Of a DNA stretch of 64,000 nucleotides, positions 1 through 23,740 are shown in pieces. Below the pieces are notes generated by a model. That model was not told where the DNA came from. It did not search any database and worked only from the letters and a program-made list of their open reading frames with translations. Location of the stretch: NCBI GenBank assembly GCA_963789955.1, contig CAWBMV010000021.1, positions 1 to 64,000 on the forward strand, in the 5' to 3' direction. Position 1 is the stretch's first letter; every line of letters begins with the position of its first letter. The stretch is from an uncultured Candidatus Rokubacteria bacterium. GTDB taxonomy: Bacteria; Methylomirabilota; Methylomirabilia; Rokubacteriales; CSP1-6. The translations under genes were made by a program, and so were the position numbers.

Positions 1-1286
1 CACCGCGAGCGTGTGGTTCCCGCAAGGATTTGTTCAGGACGAGGACGTGTCCCTGCGCAAGGCCGTGGCCGACTACGAGAAGCAGAGCGGCAACAAGATC
101 GAGCTGAGCATCACCCCCTTCGCGCCGGAACGGCAGAAGATCGTCGCGGCGCTGACCAGCGGGGTCGTCCCCGATGTGATGTCCAACAACCCGGGCGAGA
201 TCTTACAGATATACGGCTGGCAAGACCGGTGGGTCGACGTCAGCGACGTCGTGGAGACTCAAAAGGGCCAGTTCAGCGAGACCGCTGTCGTGTCCGGTCA
301 GGCCTACAACAACGTCACCAGGAAGGTCGGCCAATACGGTGTGCCCGTGCGGGCCGCCGTCGTTCCCTGTCACATCTGGCGGCCGCTGGTGGAGAAGGCC
401 GGTTTCAAGATCGAGGACATCCCGAAGACCTGGGACGCATACTTCGACTTCTTCAAGAAGGTACAGGACAACCTGCGCAAGCAGGGCGAGCGCAAAGTGT
501 ACGGCATCGGCTTCCAGGTGACGGCCAACGGGGTCGACCCCTACAACCTCTTCATGGCGTTTCTCCTGGCTCACGGCGGTCAGGACATCGTCACCAAGGA
601 CGGCAATCTGCACCTCGACGACCCGAAGGTGAAGGAAGCGGCCATCAAGGCCTCGGCGTACCTCGGCGGCGCCTATCGGGACGGCTACGTTCCGCCGAGC
701 GCGATCAACTGGAACGACGCGGACGACAACAACGCCTTCCACGCCAAGCTGATGGTGATGGACGTCGACGGCACGCTCTCGACCGAGGTCGCGGTCAAGG
801 AAAAGCACCCCGACTGGTACTTCAAGGACATGGTGACCCACGGCGTCCCGGGCTACCCGAGCGACAACCAGGGCAAGCCCGTCCCGGCCATCGTCGGCGT
901 CACCTGCTGGATGATCCCCAAGGGGGCGAAAAACGTCACGGTGGCGAAGGAATTCCTCAAGTACTTCGCTCAGCCGAAGGTCTGCGGCGAATTCGTCGAG
1001 CTGGGATTGGGCCGCTGGCTGCCGGTCATGCCGTCACTCGCCAAGAGCCCATTCTGGCAGGACCCGAAGGATCCACATCTGCGGGGCTACGTCCAGATGG
1101 GCGCTGCTCGGCCCGACGACGCCCGACTACTTCGTGTTCAACGTGGCGATGGCGGAAGTCCGCAACCAGCACGTGTGGAGCATGGCGATGATCGACGTGG
1201 CGAAGGAAGGCGTGAAGGCGGAAGTGGCGGTCGACAAGGCATTCAAGCGCATCGAGGAGATCTTCTCCAAGTACAAGAAGGCGTGA
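1..1286 (+). CDS. Carbohydrate-type ABC transporter substrate-binding protein (5'-truncated by window edge, frameshift near 1100)
   Basis: ORF 11.. reads WFPQGFVQDED...IPKTWD...WNDADDNNAFH...WMIPKGAKN. The C-terminus continues in another frame (YFVFNVAMAEVRNQHVWS...AFKRIEEIFSKYKKA) to TGA 1284-1286. Confidence 0.85.
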
Positions 1287-1301
1287 GGACGGAGACGAAC
1301 C

Positions 1302-2217
1302 ATGAACGGCACCTCGGTCGTCGACATCGGCCGCCCGGCCATCCGGCGGCGCACGCTCGCCGCGCTCTCTGCGCGGCGGCCTCAAGGGCGGTGAGTACAC
1401 CTGGGCCGTCGCCTTCGTCGTGCCGTACATCGCGGTGTTCTCGACCTTCGTCGCGTACCCGGTGGTCTACGGGTTGTGGATGGGCAGCGAAGTCAGTCTC
1501 TACCGGGAGCTCTTCGCCGACCCGATCTACCAGAGCACGGTGGTGAACACCATCCTCTATCTGGCGCTCGGCGTGAACGTGAAGATGTTCCTGGCCCTGC
1601 TGCTGTCCGGCTTCTTCATGCGACCGGGCTGGTGGATGAAGGCGCTGCTCTTGATCTTCGTCCTGCCCTGGGCGGTGCCGCAGATCTCGACGTTCATCTC
1701 GATCCACTGGATGCTCAACGGCGAGTGGGGCTTCCTCAACAACGTCCTCTACACCCTCTTCCACATCGAGGGGCCGTCGTGGCTCAATGACCGCTGGTCG
1801 GCGCTGGGCGCGGTCATCGTCTCCCACATCTGGAAGTGGACGCCGTTCTGGACGCTGATCTTGCTCGCCGGCCGGATGGCGATCCCGCTCGAGATCAACG
1901 ACTCCGCCAAAGTCGACGGGGCGACCGGGCTGCGCGGGTTCGTGCACATCACCTTCCCGCTGCTCGCCAACCTCTACCTGATCTGCACCCTGCTCTCGAC
2001 GATCTTCCTGCTCGGCGACTTCAACGCCGTCAACTTCGTCTCCGGCGGCGGCCCCGCCAACCAGGGACATGTGCTGGCCACCTTAGGCATCCGCGATGCG
2101 TTCGAGATCGGTCAGCCACGGCTGGGCGTGGCCGCGGTGATGTCGGCGCTGCCGCTGGTCATCCCGCTGGTGATCGTCCTGATGCGCAAGCTCCGCACCT
2201 CGGAGGTTCAGATATGA
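1302..2217 (+). CDS. Carbohydrate ABC transporter permease (MalF/UgpA-like), frameshift near 5' end
   Basis: Hydrophobic ORF with LPWAVP, WKWTPFWTLILLAG and EAA-like loop SAKVDGA. ATG 1302 follows GGAG. Confidence 0.85.
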
Positions 2218-3121
2218 GCACGATCGCGGCGGACGCGAGGCTGGCAACTCGAGCGTCATCCCGGGCGCACAGCTCGGAACGGCTCCGCCGGTACCTGCGC
2301 AACTGCGGGGACCGTGGTTCTCTCCGCGGTGATCGTCGTGTGGACGCTCGTGCCGCTCTACAACATGGTGCTGATCTCGCTCGAGCCCGAGGGCGACGTC
2401 TTCACCGACCATATCTGGCCGAGGGTCCCGTCGGTCGAGAGCTTCTGGGGCGTCCTGACCCAGGGCCACTGGTATCTGGAGCACTTCTGGCGCCAGTTCG
2501 GCAACAGCTTCTTCATCGGTCTGATGGTGACGTTCTTCGCGCTGCTGTTCGGGCACGCTGACCAGCTTTGCGATCGGCCGGATGCGGATCCGCCACGGCT
2601 GGCTGGTGACCAACGCCGCGCTGTTGACCTACGTGATCCCAGCGTCGTTCCTCGCGATCCCGTTCTACCGGATCATGCAGAACTACGGGCTCGCCAACAA
2701 CCCGTGGTCGGTGATCGCCGCCCTGGTGGCGTTCGCGACGCCGTACGCGATCTTCGTCTTCCAGGAGTACGGCCGGAGCATCCCGATCGAGGTCGACGAG
2801 TCGGCACGCATCGACGGCGCCTCGCCGCCGCAGATCTATCTGCGAATCTATCTGCCGCTGATGGCACCGGCGCTGGTCGCGGTCGGCACCTACGCGCTGC
2901 TCCTGGCCTGGAACGAGTACCTGTATCAGTTCCTGCTCCTGTCCTCGAAGGCGAACATGACGGTGCCGGTGGCGCTCGCGCAGTTCCTCAGCAGCGACCA
3001 GTCGCCGTGGAACTACATGATGGCGACCGCGATCATCTACGCGGCACCGCCGGTCGCGATCTATTACGCGTTCCGCCGGCGCATGACCGCCGGCCTGACG
3101 ATGGGCGGGGTCAAGGGCTGA
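2214..3121 (+). CDS. Carbohydrate ABC transporter permease (MalG/UgpE-like), frameshifted
   Basis: ORFs 2314.. and 2582..3121 join. Motifs DESARIDGA, AWNEYLY and C-terminal GLTMGGVKG. ATGA overlap with the upstream gene. Confidence 0.85.
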
Positions 3122-5367: not shown

Positions 5368-5948
5368 ATGGGTAAAGGCCGTATCGAAGCCTTCAGCGAC
5401 GCTGTGATCGCCGTGATCATCACCGTCCTGGTCCTGGAGATGAAGGTGCCGCACGGCACCGACGCGGCGGCGCTCGCGCCGGTGCTGCCCGTATTCCTGA
5501 CCTACGTGCTGAGCTTCATCTTCGTCGGGATCTACTGGAACAACCACCACCACCTGTACCACGCCGTGCGCCACGTGCACGGCGCGACGTTGTGGGCGAA
5601 TCTGCATCTGCTCTTCTGGCTCTCGCTCGTACCGTTCGTCACCGGCTGGGTGGGCACCAGCCACTTCGCGCCACTGCCCGTCGCGGCCTATGGCGCCGTG
5701 CTGCTCGGCGCGGGCGCCGCCTACTACATCCTCACTCGCCTGCTCCTCCGCGTCCACGGAAGGACTCGCTGCTGGCGAGAGCGCTCGGCCGGGATCTCAA
5801 GGGGAAGATCTCGGTGGTCATCTACGTCGTGGCGATCGGGCTCGCCTTCGTTCAACCACTGATCTCCTGCGCGCTCTATGTCCTGGTCGCGGCGATCTGG
5901 TTCTGTCCGGATCCGCGCTTCGAGAAGCTGGTCGGCAGTCAGAGCTGA
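5368..5948 (+). CDS. TMEM175/DUF1211-family membrane protein (putative K+ channel), frameshift near 5760
   Basis: RIEAFSDAVIAVIITVLVLE and YWNNHHH motifs. C-terminus (ALGRDLKGKISVVIY...PDPRFEK) lies in the frame ending at 5948. Confidence 0.85.
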
Positions 5949-6697: not shown

Positions 6698-7087
6698 ATG
6701 GCGAATTCGGCGGGTTACCACGAGTCGGAAAGCAAGCTGAGACCGGAGACTCTCGACAACCATCGGGCGCTCACGTCCATGCAGGAAGAGCTGGAGGCCG
6801 CCGACTGGTACGACCAGCGCGTCGACGCGGCCACCGACTCCGATCTGAAGGCGATCCTGGCGCACAATCGAGACGAGGAGAAGGAGCACTTCGCCATGCT
6901 GCTCGAGTGGTACCGGCGCCGCGACGCCACGATGGACGCGCACCTCAAGGAGTACTTGTTCACGACCGGATCGCTGGTCATGCGAGAGCAAGCCAGCGCC
7001 GGCGGTGGCGAAGGCGGCGCTGATTCCGCGGCCGGAAGCGGGGGTTCGCTCGGCATCGGCAGCCTGAAGGGCGGCCAGAGCCTATGA
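6698..7087 (+). CDS. Encapsulin-associated ferritin-like protein (EncFtn/Flp) with C-terminal cargo-loading peptide
   Basis: GYHE...SMQEELEAADWYDQR...HNRDEEKEH ferroxidase motifs, a Gly/Ala/Ser linker, then GSLGIGSLKG. AAAGGAG SD before ATG 6698. Confidence 0.93.
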   Translation: MANSAGYHESESKLRPETLDNHRALTSMQEELEAADWYDQRVDAATDSDLKAILAHNRDEEKEHFAMLLEWYRRRDATMDAHLKEYLFTTGSLVMREQASAGGGEGGADSAAGSGGSLGIGSLKGGQSL

Positions 7088-7914
7088 ACAACCTCAAACG
7101 AGAGCTCGCGCCCATTTCGACCGCAGCGTGGAAGCAGATCGACGCCGAGGCCACACGCGTACTCAAGCTGAAGCTCGCGGGGCGGAAGCTGGTCGACTTC
7201 GACGGGCCCCTGGGCCCGACGGCGGCCGCCGTGAACACCGGGCGCCGGGAGCCGCTCGGCCGCGGGCCCGCCGACAACGTCGAGGCCACACGGAGACAGA
7301 CGAGGCCCCTGATCGAGCTGCGCTCGTACTTCGAGCTCGCGCGCGAGGAGATGGATGCGGTCGAGCGCGGAGCGGAGGACCCCGAGCTCCAACCCCTGAT
7401 CGACGCGGCCTCTCGCATCGCCTACGCCGAGGACACCGCGATCTTCCACGGCTACGCGGACGGCGGCATCGAGGGCATCGACCAGGCGTCGGCCCATCCC
7501 ATCCTGCCGATTCCGGATGACTTCCAAAACTATCCGCACAGCATCGCGGAAGCGACGAGACTTCTGCGACTGGCCGGCGTCGACGGTCCCTACGCGATCG
7601 CCATGGGCCCGCGTTATTACACGGGGCTCACTCAAGCGGTGGGTGACGGCGGCTATCCCGTGCTGAACGTGGTGAGAAAGCTCGTCGACGGGCCGCTCGT
7701 GTGGGCGCCGGCGGTCAACGGCGCGGTCGTGCTGAGCCTTCGCGGCGGCGACTTCGAGCTGACGATCGGCACCGACGTGTCGATCGCCTATCAGAACCAC
7801 ACGGACGAAGCCGTCCGCCTCTATCTGGTGGAGACCATGGCCTTCCGCGTGCTCACGCCCGAGGCGGCGGTGGCGCTGGTTCACGCGGACGACAAGCGTC
7901 CTCGCAAGCGCTGA
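7084..7914 (+). CDS. Family 1 encapsulin shell protein (Linocin M18-like)
   Basis: MNNLKRELAPISTAAWKQIDAEA...LAGRKLVDFDGPLG...RGGDFELTIGTDVSIAY...FRVLTPEAAV. ATGA overlap with the cargo gene. Confidence 0.95.
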   Translation: MNNLKRELAPISTAAWKQIDAEATRVLKLKLAGRKLVDFDGPLGPTAAAVNTGRREPLGRGPADNVEATRRQTRPLIELRSYFELAREEMDAVERGAEDPELQPLIDAASRIAYAEDTAIFHGYADGGIEGIDQASAHPILPIPDDFQNYPHSIAEATRLLRLAGVDGPYAIAMGPRYYTGLTQAVGDGGYPVLNVVRKLVDGPLVWAPAVNGAVVLSLRGGDFELTIGTDVSIAYQNHTDEAVRLYLVETMAFRVLTPEAAVALVHADDKRPRKR

Positions 7915-7922
7915 TCGGCGGA

Positions 7923-8892
7923 CTAGGCGGCCGGCTCCCGCGCCGAGGTGGGGTCGCGGAGCTTCTCGGTCGGGAGCTGACTGTCCATCCAGAGCCCGAG
8001 GCCGCCCTGGAGAGGCCGGACCCGCGTGATGCCGTGACGCTTGAGCCGTAGCGCCACCCGGGCGCTGGTCGCTTCGTTGGGTCAGGTGCAGAACACGACG
8101 ATGTCGCGGTCGCGCGGAATCTCGAGGTGGCGCCGATCGATGTCGTCCGCGGCGAATCCACAGGGCGCCGGGGATCGTGTACGGCGTCATGTTCAGCTCG
8201 AGCGGCGACCGCGCATCCACGATCGTCAGACCGGAGTCCCCGGCCGCCAGGCGGTCCCGCAGCTCCTCGACCGTGATGCGCGCCATCCGGAGACTGCGCA
8301 GAAACCGCTGGCGCTGGGTGAACTTGATCGCGACGTACGCCACGATCGCCGCCGCGACGACGATCAGCAGCGCATTTCCCAGCCGCGCGGAATCCGACAC
8401 GATGAGCTCCAGCGCGTCACTGAACAGGTAGCCCACGGCGGCCCAGCTGCCGGCCCACACGAGCGCCGCGGCGCTGTCGAGCAACAGGAACTGCCGACGG
8501 GAGATCCCGACGACACCCGCCAGCGGCGGCGCGACCGTGCTCAGGCCGGGAAAGAATTTGGCGACCAGCAGGACGCCGCGCCCGTGCTTGACGAACGAAT
8601 CCTCGGCGCGCCGGACGCACGAGTCCGGCTCGAGCGAGATCCGACACAGAAGACGGAGGACTCGACCGCCACGCCGCCGCCCCAGCTCGTACCAGACGAT
8701 GTCGGGCGTGAGCGAGGCGACGAGGGCCACACCGAGCGCCGGCGCCAGACTCATCCGCCCCGCCCCGGCGAGCGCGCCAACGCCGAGCAGAACGGGCACC
8801 GCCGGAATCGGCAGACCGACTTGCTCGGCCAGCACGAACGCGAACAGCACGACGTAGCCGTATTGCAGCAAGACCTGGATCGTGTCGTCCAT
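7923..8892 (-). CDS. DedA/VTT-domain + rhodanese-domain protein; candidate selenoprotein (in-frame TGA 8082-8084); one frameshift near 8155
   Basis: N-terminal EQVGLPIPAVP, CRISLEPDSCVRR, AKFFPG. After a 1-nt shift the frame reads IPRDRDIVVFCT*PNEATSARVALRLKRHGITRVRPLQGGLGLW...AA to TAG 7923-7925. Confidence 0.85.
8050..8066 (-). promoter_or_regulatory. Putative bacterial SECIS hairpin
   Basis: mRNA UGA-CCCAACGAAGCGACC-AGCGCC-CGGGU-GGCGCU: 6-bp stem, G-rich loop starting 22 nt after the UGA. Confidence 0.65.
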
Positions 8893-12445: not shown

Positions 12446-12475
12446 GCCGCGCTATTGACACCCATGGAGGCTTCG

Positions 12476-13649
12476 ATGAACGCGACGACCAAGACCACCC
12501 TCTCCGACGAACTGATCGGCCGTTGCGGTAGCCGAGCGGCGGCGTACGATCGCGACAACCGGTTCTTCACCGAAGATTTCGAGGAGCTGCGCGCCGCGGG
12601 CTATCTCAAGATGGCGGTGCCGGAGCATCTCGGTGGCCCCGGCATGACCCTGGCCGAGATCTGCCGCGAACAGCGGCGTCTGGCCTACCGCGCGCCGGCC
12701 ACGGCGCTCGCGACGAACATGCACCTCTACTGGACCGGGCTCGCCGCCGACATGCGGCGGGCCGGCGACAAGTCGCTCGAGTGGATTCTCGCCGAAGCGG
12801 CCGCGGGTGAGGTCTTTGCCGCCGGCCACGGCGAAGCCGGCAACGATTTGCCGCTCTTCCTGTCCACGGCGAAGGCCGAGCGCGTCGACGGCGGCTATCG
12901 CTTCTGGGGTCACAAGACCTTCGGCAGCCTCACACCCGTGTGGACGCGGCTGGGCCTGCACGCGATGGACGCGAGCAATCCGAGCGCACCGCAGATCATC
13001 CACGCGTTTCTCCCGCGCGACGCGAAGGGCTACTCGATCAAGGAGACGTGGGACACGCTCGGCATGCGCGCGACGCGGAGCGACGACACGATCCTCGACG
13101 GCGCCTTCGTGCCGGACCGCTACATCGCCCGGCGGCTGCCGGCCGGCACCGCCGATCTCTTCGTGCTGTCGATCTTCGGGTGGGCCGAGCCGACGTTCGC
13201 CAACATCTATCTCGGTCTGGCCGAGCGTGCCCGCGACCTGGCGGCGGCCGGCGTCAAGAAGCGCACGTCACTCGCCCTCACCCGGTCGATGGCGTACCAC
13301 CCGGAGGTCCAGCGCTGCTTCTCGGAGATGCAGCTGGCCCTCGAGGCGAGCGACCGCCCAGGTCGACCGCATCGCCGACGACTGGTCGAATCAGGTCGAT
13401 CACGGCATGGCGTGGCCGATGAAGCTCGTGGCGGCCAAGCACAACGCGGTCGAGGCCGCCAAGAAGGTCGTCGATCTCGCGATGTCCGTCTCGGGCGGCA
13501 CGGGCATGTTCAAGTCGAACGAGCTCGAGCGGCTCTATCGAGACGTCCGCTGCGGCGGGTTTCATCCGGCCAACTCGATCCTGGTCCACGAGATCGTCGG
13601 CAAGACGGTGCTCGGGATCGGTCTCGGCGAGCAGCCGCGGTGGGGATGA
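12476..13649 (+). CDS. Acyl-CoA dehydrogenase-family protein (frameshift near 13350)
   Basis: GGYRFWGHKTFGS, WDTLGMRATRSDD. C-terminal ELERLYRDVRCGGFHP lies in the frame ending at 13649. Confidence 0.88.
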
Positions 13650-21155: not shown

Positions 21156-21941
21156 TCAGGCCGCTGTCACGCCGCCGTCGACCGGCAACGCGACGCCCGT
21201 GACGAACGACGCTTCGTCCGAGAGCAGGAACAGCGCCGCGTTGGCGATCTCGTCGGGCTTACCCGTGCGACCCAGCGGCACGGAGCCGTGAGCGCGCTTG
21301 CGCACGAGCTCCTCCGGATCCATGCCGGCCGTCGACTTCTGATCGGGGCGTGAGACGAACACGCGCAGCATCGGCGTGTCGATCGGACCGGGACAGACGG
21401 CGTTCACGCGAATCTTTTCGGGCGCCAGCCGCAGCGCCAGGCTCTTGACGAAGCCCACCACGCCGAACTTGCACATCGAGTAGACCGGGCTGAAGCCGGA
21501 TCCCACCAGCCCGGAGGTCGACGCGGTATAGAGGAGGCTCCCACCGCCCCGGGCGCGTAGCTCGGGAATAGCCGCCTCGGTCGTGATCAGCACCGTGCGG
21601 AGGTTGAGGTCGACCGCCAGATTGAAGGCGCTCATGTCGATACCCTCGATCGCGGCCGGCCCGGGATGACCGACATGGTTCCAGACGAAATCCAGCCCCT
21701 TGAACCGGTTCACGGTGTCCCACACGATGCGGCGCGAATCCTCGTCGTTCGTCAGGTCCGCCGTGATGCCGTGCGCGACGCCGCCTGCCGCGGTAATCTC
21801 GCCCACCACGCGCTTGACCCCAGCAGCGTCCACGTCGACGACGGCGACCTGCGCGCCTTCTCGCGCGAAGCGCAGGGCTCCGGCCCGTCCCATACCCGAG
21901 GCAGCAGCGGTCACGATCCCGATCTTTCCGGCCATGCGCAT
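21156..21941 (-). CDS. SDR-family oxidoreductase
   Basis: TAAASGMG, YSMCK (YxxxK), RVNAVCPGPIDT, LPVDGG. Confidence 0.92.
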   Translation of the reverse strand: MRMAGKIGIVTAAASGMGRAGALRFAREGAQVAVVDVDAAGVKRVVGEITAAGGVAHGITADLTNDEDSRRIVWDTVNRFKGLDFVWNHVGHPGPAAIEGIDMSAFNLAVDLNLRTVLITTEAAIPELRARGGGSLLYTASTSGLVGSGFSPVYSMCKFGVVGFVKSLALRLAPEKIRVNAVCPGPIDTPMLRVFVSRPDQKSTAGMDPEELVRKRAHGSVPLGRTGKPDEIANAALFLLSDEASFVTGVALPVDGGVTAA

Positions 21942-22141
21942 CGGTAGACCTCCGACGGAGATTGAGTCTCGATCCTACTATAGTGAGAGCCCCTTCGAGC
22001 CTAGCCCGGCCGGTTGACTTGTCGCGCGGGCTCTGACAGGATCGGCGCGAGCTTGACGCACCGATTCGCGCACGCCCTCATCCATGCCTGCCCCGGCACG
22101 GGGCACACGCACGAAGACCACGAGTCCCCAGGAGGCTCATC

Positions 22142-22990
22142 ATGACCCGACGTCGACTTGCCGCCATGGCGGTCACCGCACTCCTCTGCGCGGCGCCCGC
22201 GCTCGCCCAGGAAAAACTTCCGCCCTTGAGAACCGGGGTCGACGGCACCTTCGCGCCGCACGCCATGCCCAAGCTGGGCGGCGGCATCGAGGGCTTCCAG
22301 GTCGACCTCTTCACCGAGGTCGCGCGTCGCATGCACCGCGAGATCACCATCGACGCGGTGAGCTTCTCGACCTTGATCCCCGGCATGCAGTCCGGCCGCT
22401 ACGACTTCATCGCCGCGCCGACGACAGTGACCAAGGAGCGGGCAGAGAACATGCTCTTCACCGCGGGCTATCTCTGGACCGCGTACCAGTTCGGCATCAA
22501 GAAGGGCTCGGAACCGATCAAGGGCTGGGCGGACCTCAAGGGCAAGTCGGTCTCCGTCAACAAGGGCACGCCGTACGAGACCTTGTCCAAGGCCATGGGC
22601 ACCGAGCACGGCTTCACGGTGCAGGTCTATGACACCCAGCCGGACGCCACGCAGGCCGTCCTCTCGGGCCGCGCCTACGCGACCCTCGGCGGCAACACGA
22701 CGATCGTGTACGCCGCGTCGAAGAATCCGCAGTTCGTGGCCGATCTCGAGCTCAAGGAGACGCGCGCCCACTGGGCGGCGCCGGTGCCCAAGAACAACCC
22801 GAAGCTCCGCGCCGAGCTTCAGGATGCGCTCGACTGCATGAAGAAGGACGGCACGATCGCCAAGATGTCCGAGAAATGGTTCGGCAAGAAGCCGGCGCCC
22901 GACGACCTGCAGGTGGTGATCACACCGGGCTACGGCCCGCCGGGTATGCCGGGGTACGATCCGACGCCGCACGAGCTTCACTGCCACTGA
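22142..22990 (+). CDS. Polar amino-acid ABC transporter substrate-binding protein
   Basis: Signal peptide, GFQVDL, LIPGMQSGRYD, MKKDGTIAKMSEKWFG. Confidence 0.9.
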   Translation: MTRRRLAAMAVTALLCAAPALAQEKLPPLRTGVDGTFAPHAMPKLGGGIEGFQVDLFTEVARRMHREITIDAVSFSTLIPGMQSGRYDFIAAPTTVTKERAENMLFTAGYLWTAYQFGIKKGSEPIKGWADLKGKSVSVNKGTPYETLSKAMGTEHGFTVQVYDTQPDATQAVLSGRAYATLGGNTTIVYAASKNPQFVADLELKETRAHWAAPVPKNNPKLRAELQDALDCMKKDGTIAKMSEKWFGKKPAPDDLQVVITPGYGPPGMPGYDPTPHELHCH

Positions 22991-22999
22991 TCTGAGGGA

Positions 23000-23740
23000 A
23001 TGAACGGCCCGATCGTCGACGCGCGCGGGCTCCACAAGCATTTCGGCGCCCTTCACGTGCTGAAGGGCGTCGATCTCCGGGTGGCCGAGCGCGAGCTGGT
23101 GTTCGTGATCGGGCCGTCGGGGTCGGGCAAGTCGACCCTGCTGCGCTGCCTCAACCGGCTGGAGGAGCCGTCTTCCGGCAGTGTCGTGGTCGACGGCATC
23201 GACATGCTCGACCCGCGGACCGACATCAACCATGCGCGTCAGCGCATCGGGATGGTCTTCCAGTCCTTCAACCTCTATCCGCACATGACGGCGCTCGGCA
23301 ACGTGACCCTGGCGCTGCGCAAGGTCGCGGGCAAGTCGCGCGCCGAGGCCGAGGCGCTGGGCCGGGCCGCGCTGGAGCGGGTCGGCCTCGCCGATCGCGC
23401 CGAACACACGCCGGGTCAGCTTTCGGGCGGCCAGCAGCAACGGGTGGCCATCGCGCGCTCGATTGCGCTCGAGCCCCGCGTGATGCTGTTCGACGAGCCG
23501 ACCAGCGCGCTCGATCCCGAGCTGGTCGGCTCGGTGCTCGAGGTCATGCGCTCCTTGCGCGAAAGCGGCATGACGATGATCGTGGTCAGCCACGAGATGG
23601 GATTCGCCCGCAACGCCGCCGACCGCGTCGTGTTCATGGACGAGGGCGCCATCGTGGAGGAAGGTCCGCCCGCCGTGATCTTCGAACGCCCGACCCACGA
23701 GCGCACGCGCACCTTCATCGGCCAGATTCAGCGGCACTGA
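23000..23740 (+). CDS. Amino-acid ABC transporter ATP-binding protein (GlnQ-like)
   Basis: [40 protein letters not shown]. Confidence 0.95.

Follow-up and report, generated by a model that had tools for sequence, protein, structure and literature searches.

Rhodanese domains with a C-x-U motif are already represented among the predicted selenoproteins. The CxU rhodanese 'form 3', equivalent to COG0607 form 2 and to NF041203 (rhodanese_LYCAU), is predicted with high confidence in Table 1 of PMC13188914, and the sequence of an example, TKB26178.1, is given in the supplement of PMC12013277. For the RNA element, the bSECIS model of PMC13188914 has a loop of 3–9 nt, a stem of 4–16 bp, a spacing of 16–37 nt, and an MFE of at most −7.5 kcal/mol, with G in the first two loop positions, usually then G or U. 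Fusions of a DedA domain to a rhodanese domain have also been described, and their function is stated as unclear in PMC10127716. The same paper names Glu39, Asp51, Arg130, and Arg136 as the four residues essential in the UndP flippases of COG0586. Deletion of the Pseudomonas aeruginosa DedA–rhodanese PA1209 left the susceptibility to fosmidomycin unchanged (PMC12893004).

Here, we describe a DedA/VTT–rhodanese fusion gene with an in-frame TGA. It lies on contig C21 of the source assembly (6.77 Mb in 38 contigs). The DNA analysed comprises the first 64 kb of this contig and is referred to as the window. The CxU rhodanese is an already catalogued predicted selenoprotein family, and what is new is its DedA-fused form and the spread of this form. 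No DedA-fused Sec rhodanese was found in the open-access literature searched; BSepDB and U-bearing NCBI records might mention it. DedA, VTT, and SNARE are not mentioned in the accessible portions of PMC13188914 (including Table 1) or of the four supplementary files of PMC12013277. Likewise, no Sec form of a DedA–rhodanese appears in the accessible portions of PMC9312934, PMC10127716, PMC12893004, PMC13326102, PMC13745706, PMC1794560, PMC5029168, PMC8679861, and PMC11422209.

Gene structure and the apparent frameshift

The gene begins with an ATG on the minus strand (Table 1). Frame 1 comprises the DedA domain and the start of the rhodanese domain and ends in ...PGALWI. Past a shift of one base near 8155, the reading goes on in frame 2 with AADDIDRRHLEIPRDRDIVVFCT, a stop codon, and PNEATSARVALRL...VRPLQGGLGLW. 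The first-pass annotation had read DIVVFC-T-TGA...VRPLQGGLGLW followed by 52 codons to a TAG, and had remarked that the ORF track misses this domain. We reproduce the reading on the minus strand, and the program's ORF list indeed holds no entry for the Sec-containing part.

Table 1. Features of the DedA–rhodanese gene, in positions of the window
Feature	Position	Strand	Basis or remark
Whole gene, DedA/VTT–rhodanese fusion (ATG at 8892)	8892-7923	minus	322 aa without the extra base; residue 270 predicted as Sec
DedA/VTT (SNARE-associated) membrane domain, residues 29-155	8428..8808	minus	PF09335, 40.4 bits, above the gathering score of 33.9
Cys83...Cys92 pair (CRISLEPDSC), helix-turn-helix in basic loop of DedA domain	8617..8646	minus	both Cys in 102/111 aligned proteins
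Rhodanese domain, residues about 207-302, spans the indel	7986..8274	minus	PF00581, 39 bits (intact orthologue)
One extra base, apparent frameshift	8155..8155		missing in 4/4 matching runs; likely assembly error
Cys268	8088..8090	minus	aligned to the active-loop Cys in single-domain rhodaneses of solved structure; Cys in 109/111 aligned proteins
In-frame TGA, predicted selenocysteine 270 (C-T-U-P-N-E)	8084-8082	minus	conservation, Cys pairing, other runs
SECIS-like hairpin AGCGCC-CGGGU-GGCGCU	8066-8050	minus	6-bp stem, 5-nt loop, 21-nt spacer; loop starts at +22
True stop TAG	7925-7923	minus	52 codons past the TGA

An intact orthologue of 325 aa (L002) served for the domain analysis. Its AlphaFold2 model, computed with Cys in place of Sec from a 111-row alignment, has two domains (pLDDT 93, pTM 0.84). 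The rhodanese assignment is also supported by the NF041203 profile (90.1 bits) and by Foldseek, whose listed matches to the model are rhodanese domains only.

The base that breaks the frame at 8155 is absent from the matching contigs of four of four soil or rhizosphere runs (X1, X2, X4, and X5; at least 93% likeness), and a looser matching of the runs shows the gap in three of four. These contigs differ from the window by only 1–3 other letters and represent near-identical strains, not the source sample. Frame changes are found in 4 of 27 gene bins sampled from the genome itself, two of the four being one and the same DedA–rhodanese paralogue. The break had been treated as an artefact in the first-pass annotation; with the base missing from all four runs and other genes of the assembly frameshifted too, it is likely an assembly error. 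Positions 8082–8084 are unchanged in all four runs, none of which shows another letter, and the TGA is kept. A single inner-membrane selenoprotein of 322 residues is very likely the product of the gene.

Split-frame genes are seen elsewhere in the window (11–2217, 2314–3121, 5368–5948, and 12455–13649), as fits an indel-rich assembly. We take the split genes to be parts of ABC transporters and an acyl-CoA-dehydrogenase-like gene. One split-frame gene of the window is a TMEM175-type channel.

The in-frame TGA, its hairpin, and the Sec machinery

A DNA search of 40 relatives yielded 29 loci besides that of the window, of which 27 contain C-x-TGA-P-x-E (25 DedA fusions, one protease fusion, and one cyclase fusion). 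The other two have a TCA codon and no visible site, respectively. In the DedA fusions of the relatives, the frame remains open for 45–63 codons past the TGA. In the phylum sample, which includes the unpublished genomes G066, G088, G158, and G159, a match is present in 116 of 135 genomes; most of the matches listed, with 112 weaker ones outside the list, hold one TGA. One locus (L038) is titled Candidatus Acidoferrum, yet it is grouped in the phylum set that holds the relatives of the window, so that title and grouping disagree.

Protein records give a complementary picture. Among the best 150 representatives of 50% clusters, C-x-C-P is found in 71, supporting the earlier proposal that the TGA occupies a conserved Cys position; judged by the protein records alone, 41 end exactly at the site, 3 have Ser or Glu there, and 35 are partial or divergent. 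The best 120 database homologues of the intact orthologue comprise 119 that end at xYC(S/T/A) and one full-length Cys form. P0057, the closest Cys form of full length, shares 65% identity with this orthologue. Where database homologues are given names, these are plain 'DedA'.

The many records that end at the codon speak in favor of reading the TGA as a true stop, which would give a 269-residue protein; a related reading takes the window copy as a pseudogene with a real frameshift at 8155. The first-pass annotation had itself named homologues ending at this position as a finding that would count against it. Such records make up 119 of the best 120; the DNA of 27 of the 29 loci continues through C-x-TGA-P-x-E into an open frame. 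A few relatives have lost the residue altogether (TCA, GAG, CGA, and AGA codons). Against both readings, termination at the TGA would sever the rhodanese fold within the active loop, conservation extends over 40+ residues beyond the codon and over the hairpin, none of the four independent runs has the extra base, and the paralogue and other genes of the assembly are frameshifted as well. We consider either reading very unlikely.

On a 201-row tree, Sec and Cys forms are interleaved, with 22 changes between them. A 58-row subsample argues against the Sec form having arisen once (single origin rejected, p-AU 2e-49), in a test that scored database proteins ending at the site as Sec from their protein records and on unrooted trees from which no direction can be read. 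The interleaving and the rejection of a single Sec clade together indicate that the site has switched repeatedly.

The first-pass annotation had placed the hairpin AGCGCC-CGGGU-GGCGCU behind the TGA with its loop 22 nt downstream, and it is found there. Its loop of 5 nt, stem of 6 bp, spacing of 21 nt, and −9.2 kcal/mol (isolated hairpin) fall within the published bSECIS ranges. For the window copy, folding in contexts of 38, 45, and 60 nt gives minimum-energy structures other than the hairpin (z −1.0, −0.5, and +0.36, respectively), and the hairpin's pairing probability is 0.49. A G-loop hairpin occurs 16–37 nt after 1734 of the 7666 TGAs that end long frames in the genome (23%), and in the exact same register after only 25 of them. 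Since one 6-bp hairpin alone is weak, the case for it rests on conservation.

This conservation was analysed over 60 distinct TGA sites, which are related by descent, so that the following counts are not independent. The codons under the hairpin are locked: Ser is AGC in 58/59 (37% in the background), Ala is GCC in 59/59 (44%), Val is GTG in 52/52 (40%), a second Ala is GCG in 59/60, and Arg is CGG, CGT, or AGG, with CGC in 0/59 against 43%; the backgrounds are 37–47% overall. Codons flanking the hairpin vary, i.e., the synonymous lock extends over the hairpin only. The stem with a G(G/U) loop can form in 59 of the 60 sites versus 4.6% of recoded controls, and the mean pairing probability is 0.66 versus 0.08. 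RNAalifold on 58 sites returns exactly these six pairs (98.9% paired), with double-sided changes in only two of the 58 sequences. The loop G is invariant and is followed by G or U. The SECIS-like element first suspected from a single copy is thus held in place at synonymous sites. All six pairs are also present in three of the seven Cys forms of a second phylum, where they may be the remnant of a recent Sec loss, and the inner five pairs persist in 5 of 14 non-TGA sites.

The Sec machinery on which the earlier reading depends is present in the genome itself, with tRNA-Sec (selC), selA, selB, and selD all identified and the three protein families scoring over their curated cut-offs. The genes selC, selA, and selB form one 4.7-kb locus. 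The genome's selD (L035:1406–1443, contig C6) has an in-frame TGA of its own (C-A-G-TGA) with an 8-bp hairpin whose loop lies at +22, and selD itself is predicted to be a selenoprotein.

The enzyme SelA is encoded in 37 of 41 relatives and in 124 of the 135 phylum genomes (a tally that again includes the four unpublished ones), and because of this near-ubiquity a correlation with the Sec trait within the phylum is uninformative. In the second phylum (that of G043, titled Nitrospirae), selA is patchy (65/121 genomes). Fourteen of its genomes have the domain, six of them in the TGA form. All six TGA forms are selA-positive versus 2/8 of the other forms (Fisher p 0.0097, uncorrected for kinship), or 3/8 if a weak selA-like piece at the end of a G043 contig is counted. 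Two genomes, G001 and G023, have a TGA form with an intact hairpin, and no selA, selB, or tRNA-Sec was found in them at a stated completeness of 98–99%; similarly, a selA hit is missing from seven published genomes of the 135 that match with a TGA. All are fragmented assemblies, and the three genes sit in one locus in the genome studied here. The missing Sec genes of G001 and G023 may reflect an assembly gap or a recent loss.

A genome-wide change of code or unspecific readthrough that would place Trp or Cys at the TGA is extremely improbable. The codon ends ordinary genes, such as the neighboring encapsulin gene at 7912–7914, none of 74 full-length homologues has Trp in this column, the sole tRNA found with a TCA anticodon is tRNA-Sec, and the TGA forms of the second phylum track selA. 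The gene shares the hallmarks of bacterial selenoproteins: its UGA aligns with Cys in homologues and is conserved elsewhere with an open frame beyond it, and selA, selB, selC, and selD are in the genome. We are therefore almost certain that the TGA is read as selenocysteine.

Related fusions, the DedA part, and possible functions

The genome has a second DedA–rhodanese gene (C12:487425–488406) with a TGA at 488230 in the context C-T-TGA-P-N-E and the same hairpin. It is 51% identical over the N-terminal part and is frameshifted at another place, upstream of the site. On contig C30 (about 21845–23300, minus strand), a signal peptide, a trypsin-like protease, and a membrane helix precede a CxU rhodanese, again with the same hairpin, and the same protease fusion is seen in L027, L095, L096, and L097. 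In non-Sec versions of this protease (contig C20 of the same genome and L088), Ser or Thr occupies the site, the hairpin has decayed, and a cNMP-binding domain is added. In L030 (736–1785, minus strand), the CxU rhodanese is joined to an adenylate/guanylate cyclase domain (PF00211), and the hairpin has a synonymous compensatory change from C-G to U-A. A stand-alone CxU rhodanese of 107 aa is encoded in L060 (1888–2208, plus strand) directly downstream of a DedA–rhodanese Sec gene; the two tandem Sec genes have different hairpins.

No conserved gene neighborhood or operon was seen in 64 loci, nor any neighbor that points to a substrate, and no selenium-related gene recurs beside the gene in this set. 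In the window, an encapsulated-ferritin-like gene (PF22277) and a family 1 encapsulin gene (PF04454) at 6698–7914 (plus strand) converge on the DedA–rhodanese gene. We treat this pair as incidental because it lies beside a homologue in only one other locus (L053).

The DedA part contains the family-specific Cys83/Cys92 pair, which is absent from the canonical DedA of the same genome. In the AlphaFold2 model, helices 76–84 and 89–113 form the helix-turn-helix with the pair, and its loop has 9 Lys/Arg against 4 Asp/Glu. By the positive-inside rule, basic loops face the cytoplasm. The Cys-pair loop and the linker that follows the last membrane helix are both basic, and to judge from this composition both are likely cytoplasmic.

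The residues essential in UndP flippases were mapped through the canonical DedA of the genome, using YghB motif positions that we assume to be correct. The Glu39 equivalent stays acidic (Glu in 64 and Asp in 17 of 111) and the Arg130 equivalent stays basic (Lys in 95 and Arg in 11 of 111). At the positions equivalent to Asp51 and Arg136 (YghB numbering), Asp and Arg, respectively, occur in 0 of 111. The four-residue set at the tips of the re-entrant helices is thus incomplete, and the proteins score 38–43 bits against the NCBIfam UptA cut-offs of 250 and 300.

The first-pass annotation had described a C-x-U active-site loop. The Sec residue does lie in the rhodanese loop, but the residue that matches the canonical catalytic Cys is Cys268, and Sec is located two residues further on. 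In a profile alignment, Cys268 falls on the loop Cys of 3TP9 and of domain 2 of 6MXV, the canonical position of the active-loop Cys in thiosulfate sulfurtransferases, and Sec270 is placed in a two-residue insertion.

Rhodaneses accept sulfane sulfur as persulfide. From the fold, the conservation, and general rhodanese and selenocysteine chemistry, we tentatively propose that the rhodanese domain acts as a membrane-tethered, cytoplasm-facing sulfur or redox carrier, a proposal to which we give slightly less than an even chance. Recoding of the TGA very likely proceeds through the downstream hairpin and the SelA, SelB, SelD, and tRNA-Sec of the genome. Cys268 would take up sulfane sulfur (or selenium) as a persulfide, and Sec270 would resolve or reduce it via a Cys–Sec selenenylsulfide, faster than a Cys form could. 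The Cys83/Cys92 pair on the cytoplasmic DedA loop would then take or return sulfur or electrons, with the DedA domain serving as an anchor or as a channel for a membrane-soluble substrate and not as a standard undecaprenyl-phosphate flippase.

The selenoprotein could also be real without being a turnover enzyme, its CxU rhodanese acting as a sensor of redox state or sulfane sulfur that gates a DedA lipid flippase or scramblase. DedA proteins are described as lipid flippases or scramblases in PMC10127716, and the acidic Glu39 and basic Arg130 positions would suit such a role, while of the four residues that UndP flippases depend on, two are missing. The CxU module is also found behind a membrane-anchored trypsin-like protease (contig C30 and L096) and before a nucleotide-cyclase domain (L030), fusions that suggest a portable regulatory module, and the non-Sec protease versions add the cNMP-binding domain. 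On the other hand, the stand-alone CxU form with a signal peptide has nothing to gate. A sensor is possible, but we regard it as rather unlikely.

The carrier proposal can be extended to a four-thiol relay, in which the CxU loop would exchange sulfane sulfur or electrons with Cys83/Cys92, DedA, no longer engaged in undecaprenyl-phosphate flipping, would be a redox- or sulfur-gated transporter, and CxU would be a portable switch of soil Methylomirabilota that is also mounted on a protease and a cyclase. This extension seems improbable to us. With regard to the carrier proposal itself, the Cys pair is lost in 6 of 12 proteins without the CxC/U motif versus 9 of 153 with it (raw counts, L078 left out). 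This co-loss is gone after correction for the tree (two cases in the same direction, one opposite, and three without difference; p 1). A complex prediction for the DedA part and the rhodanese part of a natural Cys homologue gave a score of 0.00, which speaks neither for nor against a contact.

In a further alternative, the selenoprotein is real and its Cys268, Sec270, Cys83, and Cys92 form a binding site for metals or metalloids (selenite, arsenite, Hg, Cu, or Zn), which would be taken up, reduced, or exported by way of DedA; the selenite link of the first-pass annotation belongs to this reading. The four conserved thiol/selenol residues likely lie on the same side of the membrane, and PMC8679861 links one DedA, from Cupriavidus, to the uptake of selenite and another, from Rhodanobacter, to the extrusion of indium. 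The selenite link goes back to one 2005 paper, as cited in PMC8679861, on a Cupriavidus protein that need not be a DedA–rhodanese fusion. Moreover, no selenium or metal-resistance gene recurs beside the gene in the 64 loci (clusters read by eye), and nine of the 153 CxC/U proteins are without the DedA Cys pair. We consider a metal site unlikely.

Comparison with known systems

The link between the DedA and rhodanese domains is openly stated as unknown in PMC10127716. Repeated use of Sec at the second loop position indicates chemistry at this residue, so that the question can be put to the test. The Sec form is common in abundant soil bacteria, with the matches in the phylum sample being mostly TGA forms among those listed. 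Because 119 of the 120 closest database entries stop at the codon, a membrane selenoprotein subfamily is missing from current annotations; the accessible portions of the 2026 catalogue, with its 119 families, do not have it either. What limits the value of the finding is that the Sec motif is already catalogued and the function is inferred.

The closest catalogued selenoprotein is form 3. Both share the loop (published as LYCAUPNE..SAR, here VFCTUPNE..SAR), with Sec two residues past the first Cys of the rhodanese active loop, both have Cys homologues, and NF041203 is the best NCBIfam hit of the fusion. Unlike the published examples in the accessible sources, which are stand-alone proteins of about 130–150 aa with a signal-peptide-like start, the protein described here is an integral membrane fusion of 322 aa whose rhodanese domain is likely cytoplasmic. 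Against the NF041203 cut-off of 115 bits, the Sec forms reach 90.1 (L002) and 92.3 (L039), the window fragment 55, and Cys forms 90.2 and 85.1. The model describes a small protein of 126 positions, whereas the rhodanese domain here is fused behind a DedA part of 200 residues. Since it scores below the cut-off and does not stand alone, we do not file the fusion as a member of NF041203.

In common with the solved rhodaneses (GlpE, PspE, YgaP, 6MXV, and 3TP9), the domain has the rhodanese fold and the first active-loop Cys. The usual loop pattern of rhodaneses is G-x-R. In contrast to the solved proteins, the loop is two residues longer and contains a second Cys or Sec and P-N-E. No solved structure of a CxC/U rhodanese or of a DedA domain is among the Foldseek matches listed.

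With UptA, YqjA, YghB, and PA4029, the fusion shares the DedA core as well as acidic and basic (Lys) residues at the positions of Glu39 and Arg130, respectively. It differs from them in lacking equivalents of Asp51 and Arg136 and in having the Cys83/Cys92 pair and the rhodanese domain. The closest relatives in architecture are the DedA–rhodanese fusions of the COG0586 DedA subfamily (PF09335 plus PF00581, including PA1209), which have the same domain order and a similar length (311–325 aa). Three plasmid-borne homologues from Burkholderiales, annotated as 'VTT domain-containing protein', have C-x-C-P at the Sec site. Judged by its sequence, the fusion belongs to the DedA/VTT family and to the DedA–rhodanese fusions, and not to the UndP flippases. 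It is set apart from the known DedA–rhodanese fusions by the predicted Sec in place of the second Cys and by the SECIS-like hairpin that follows it.
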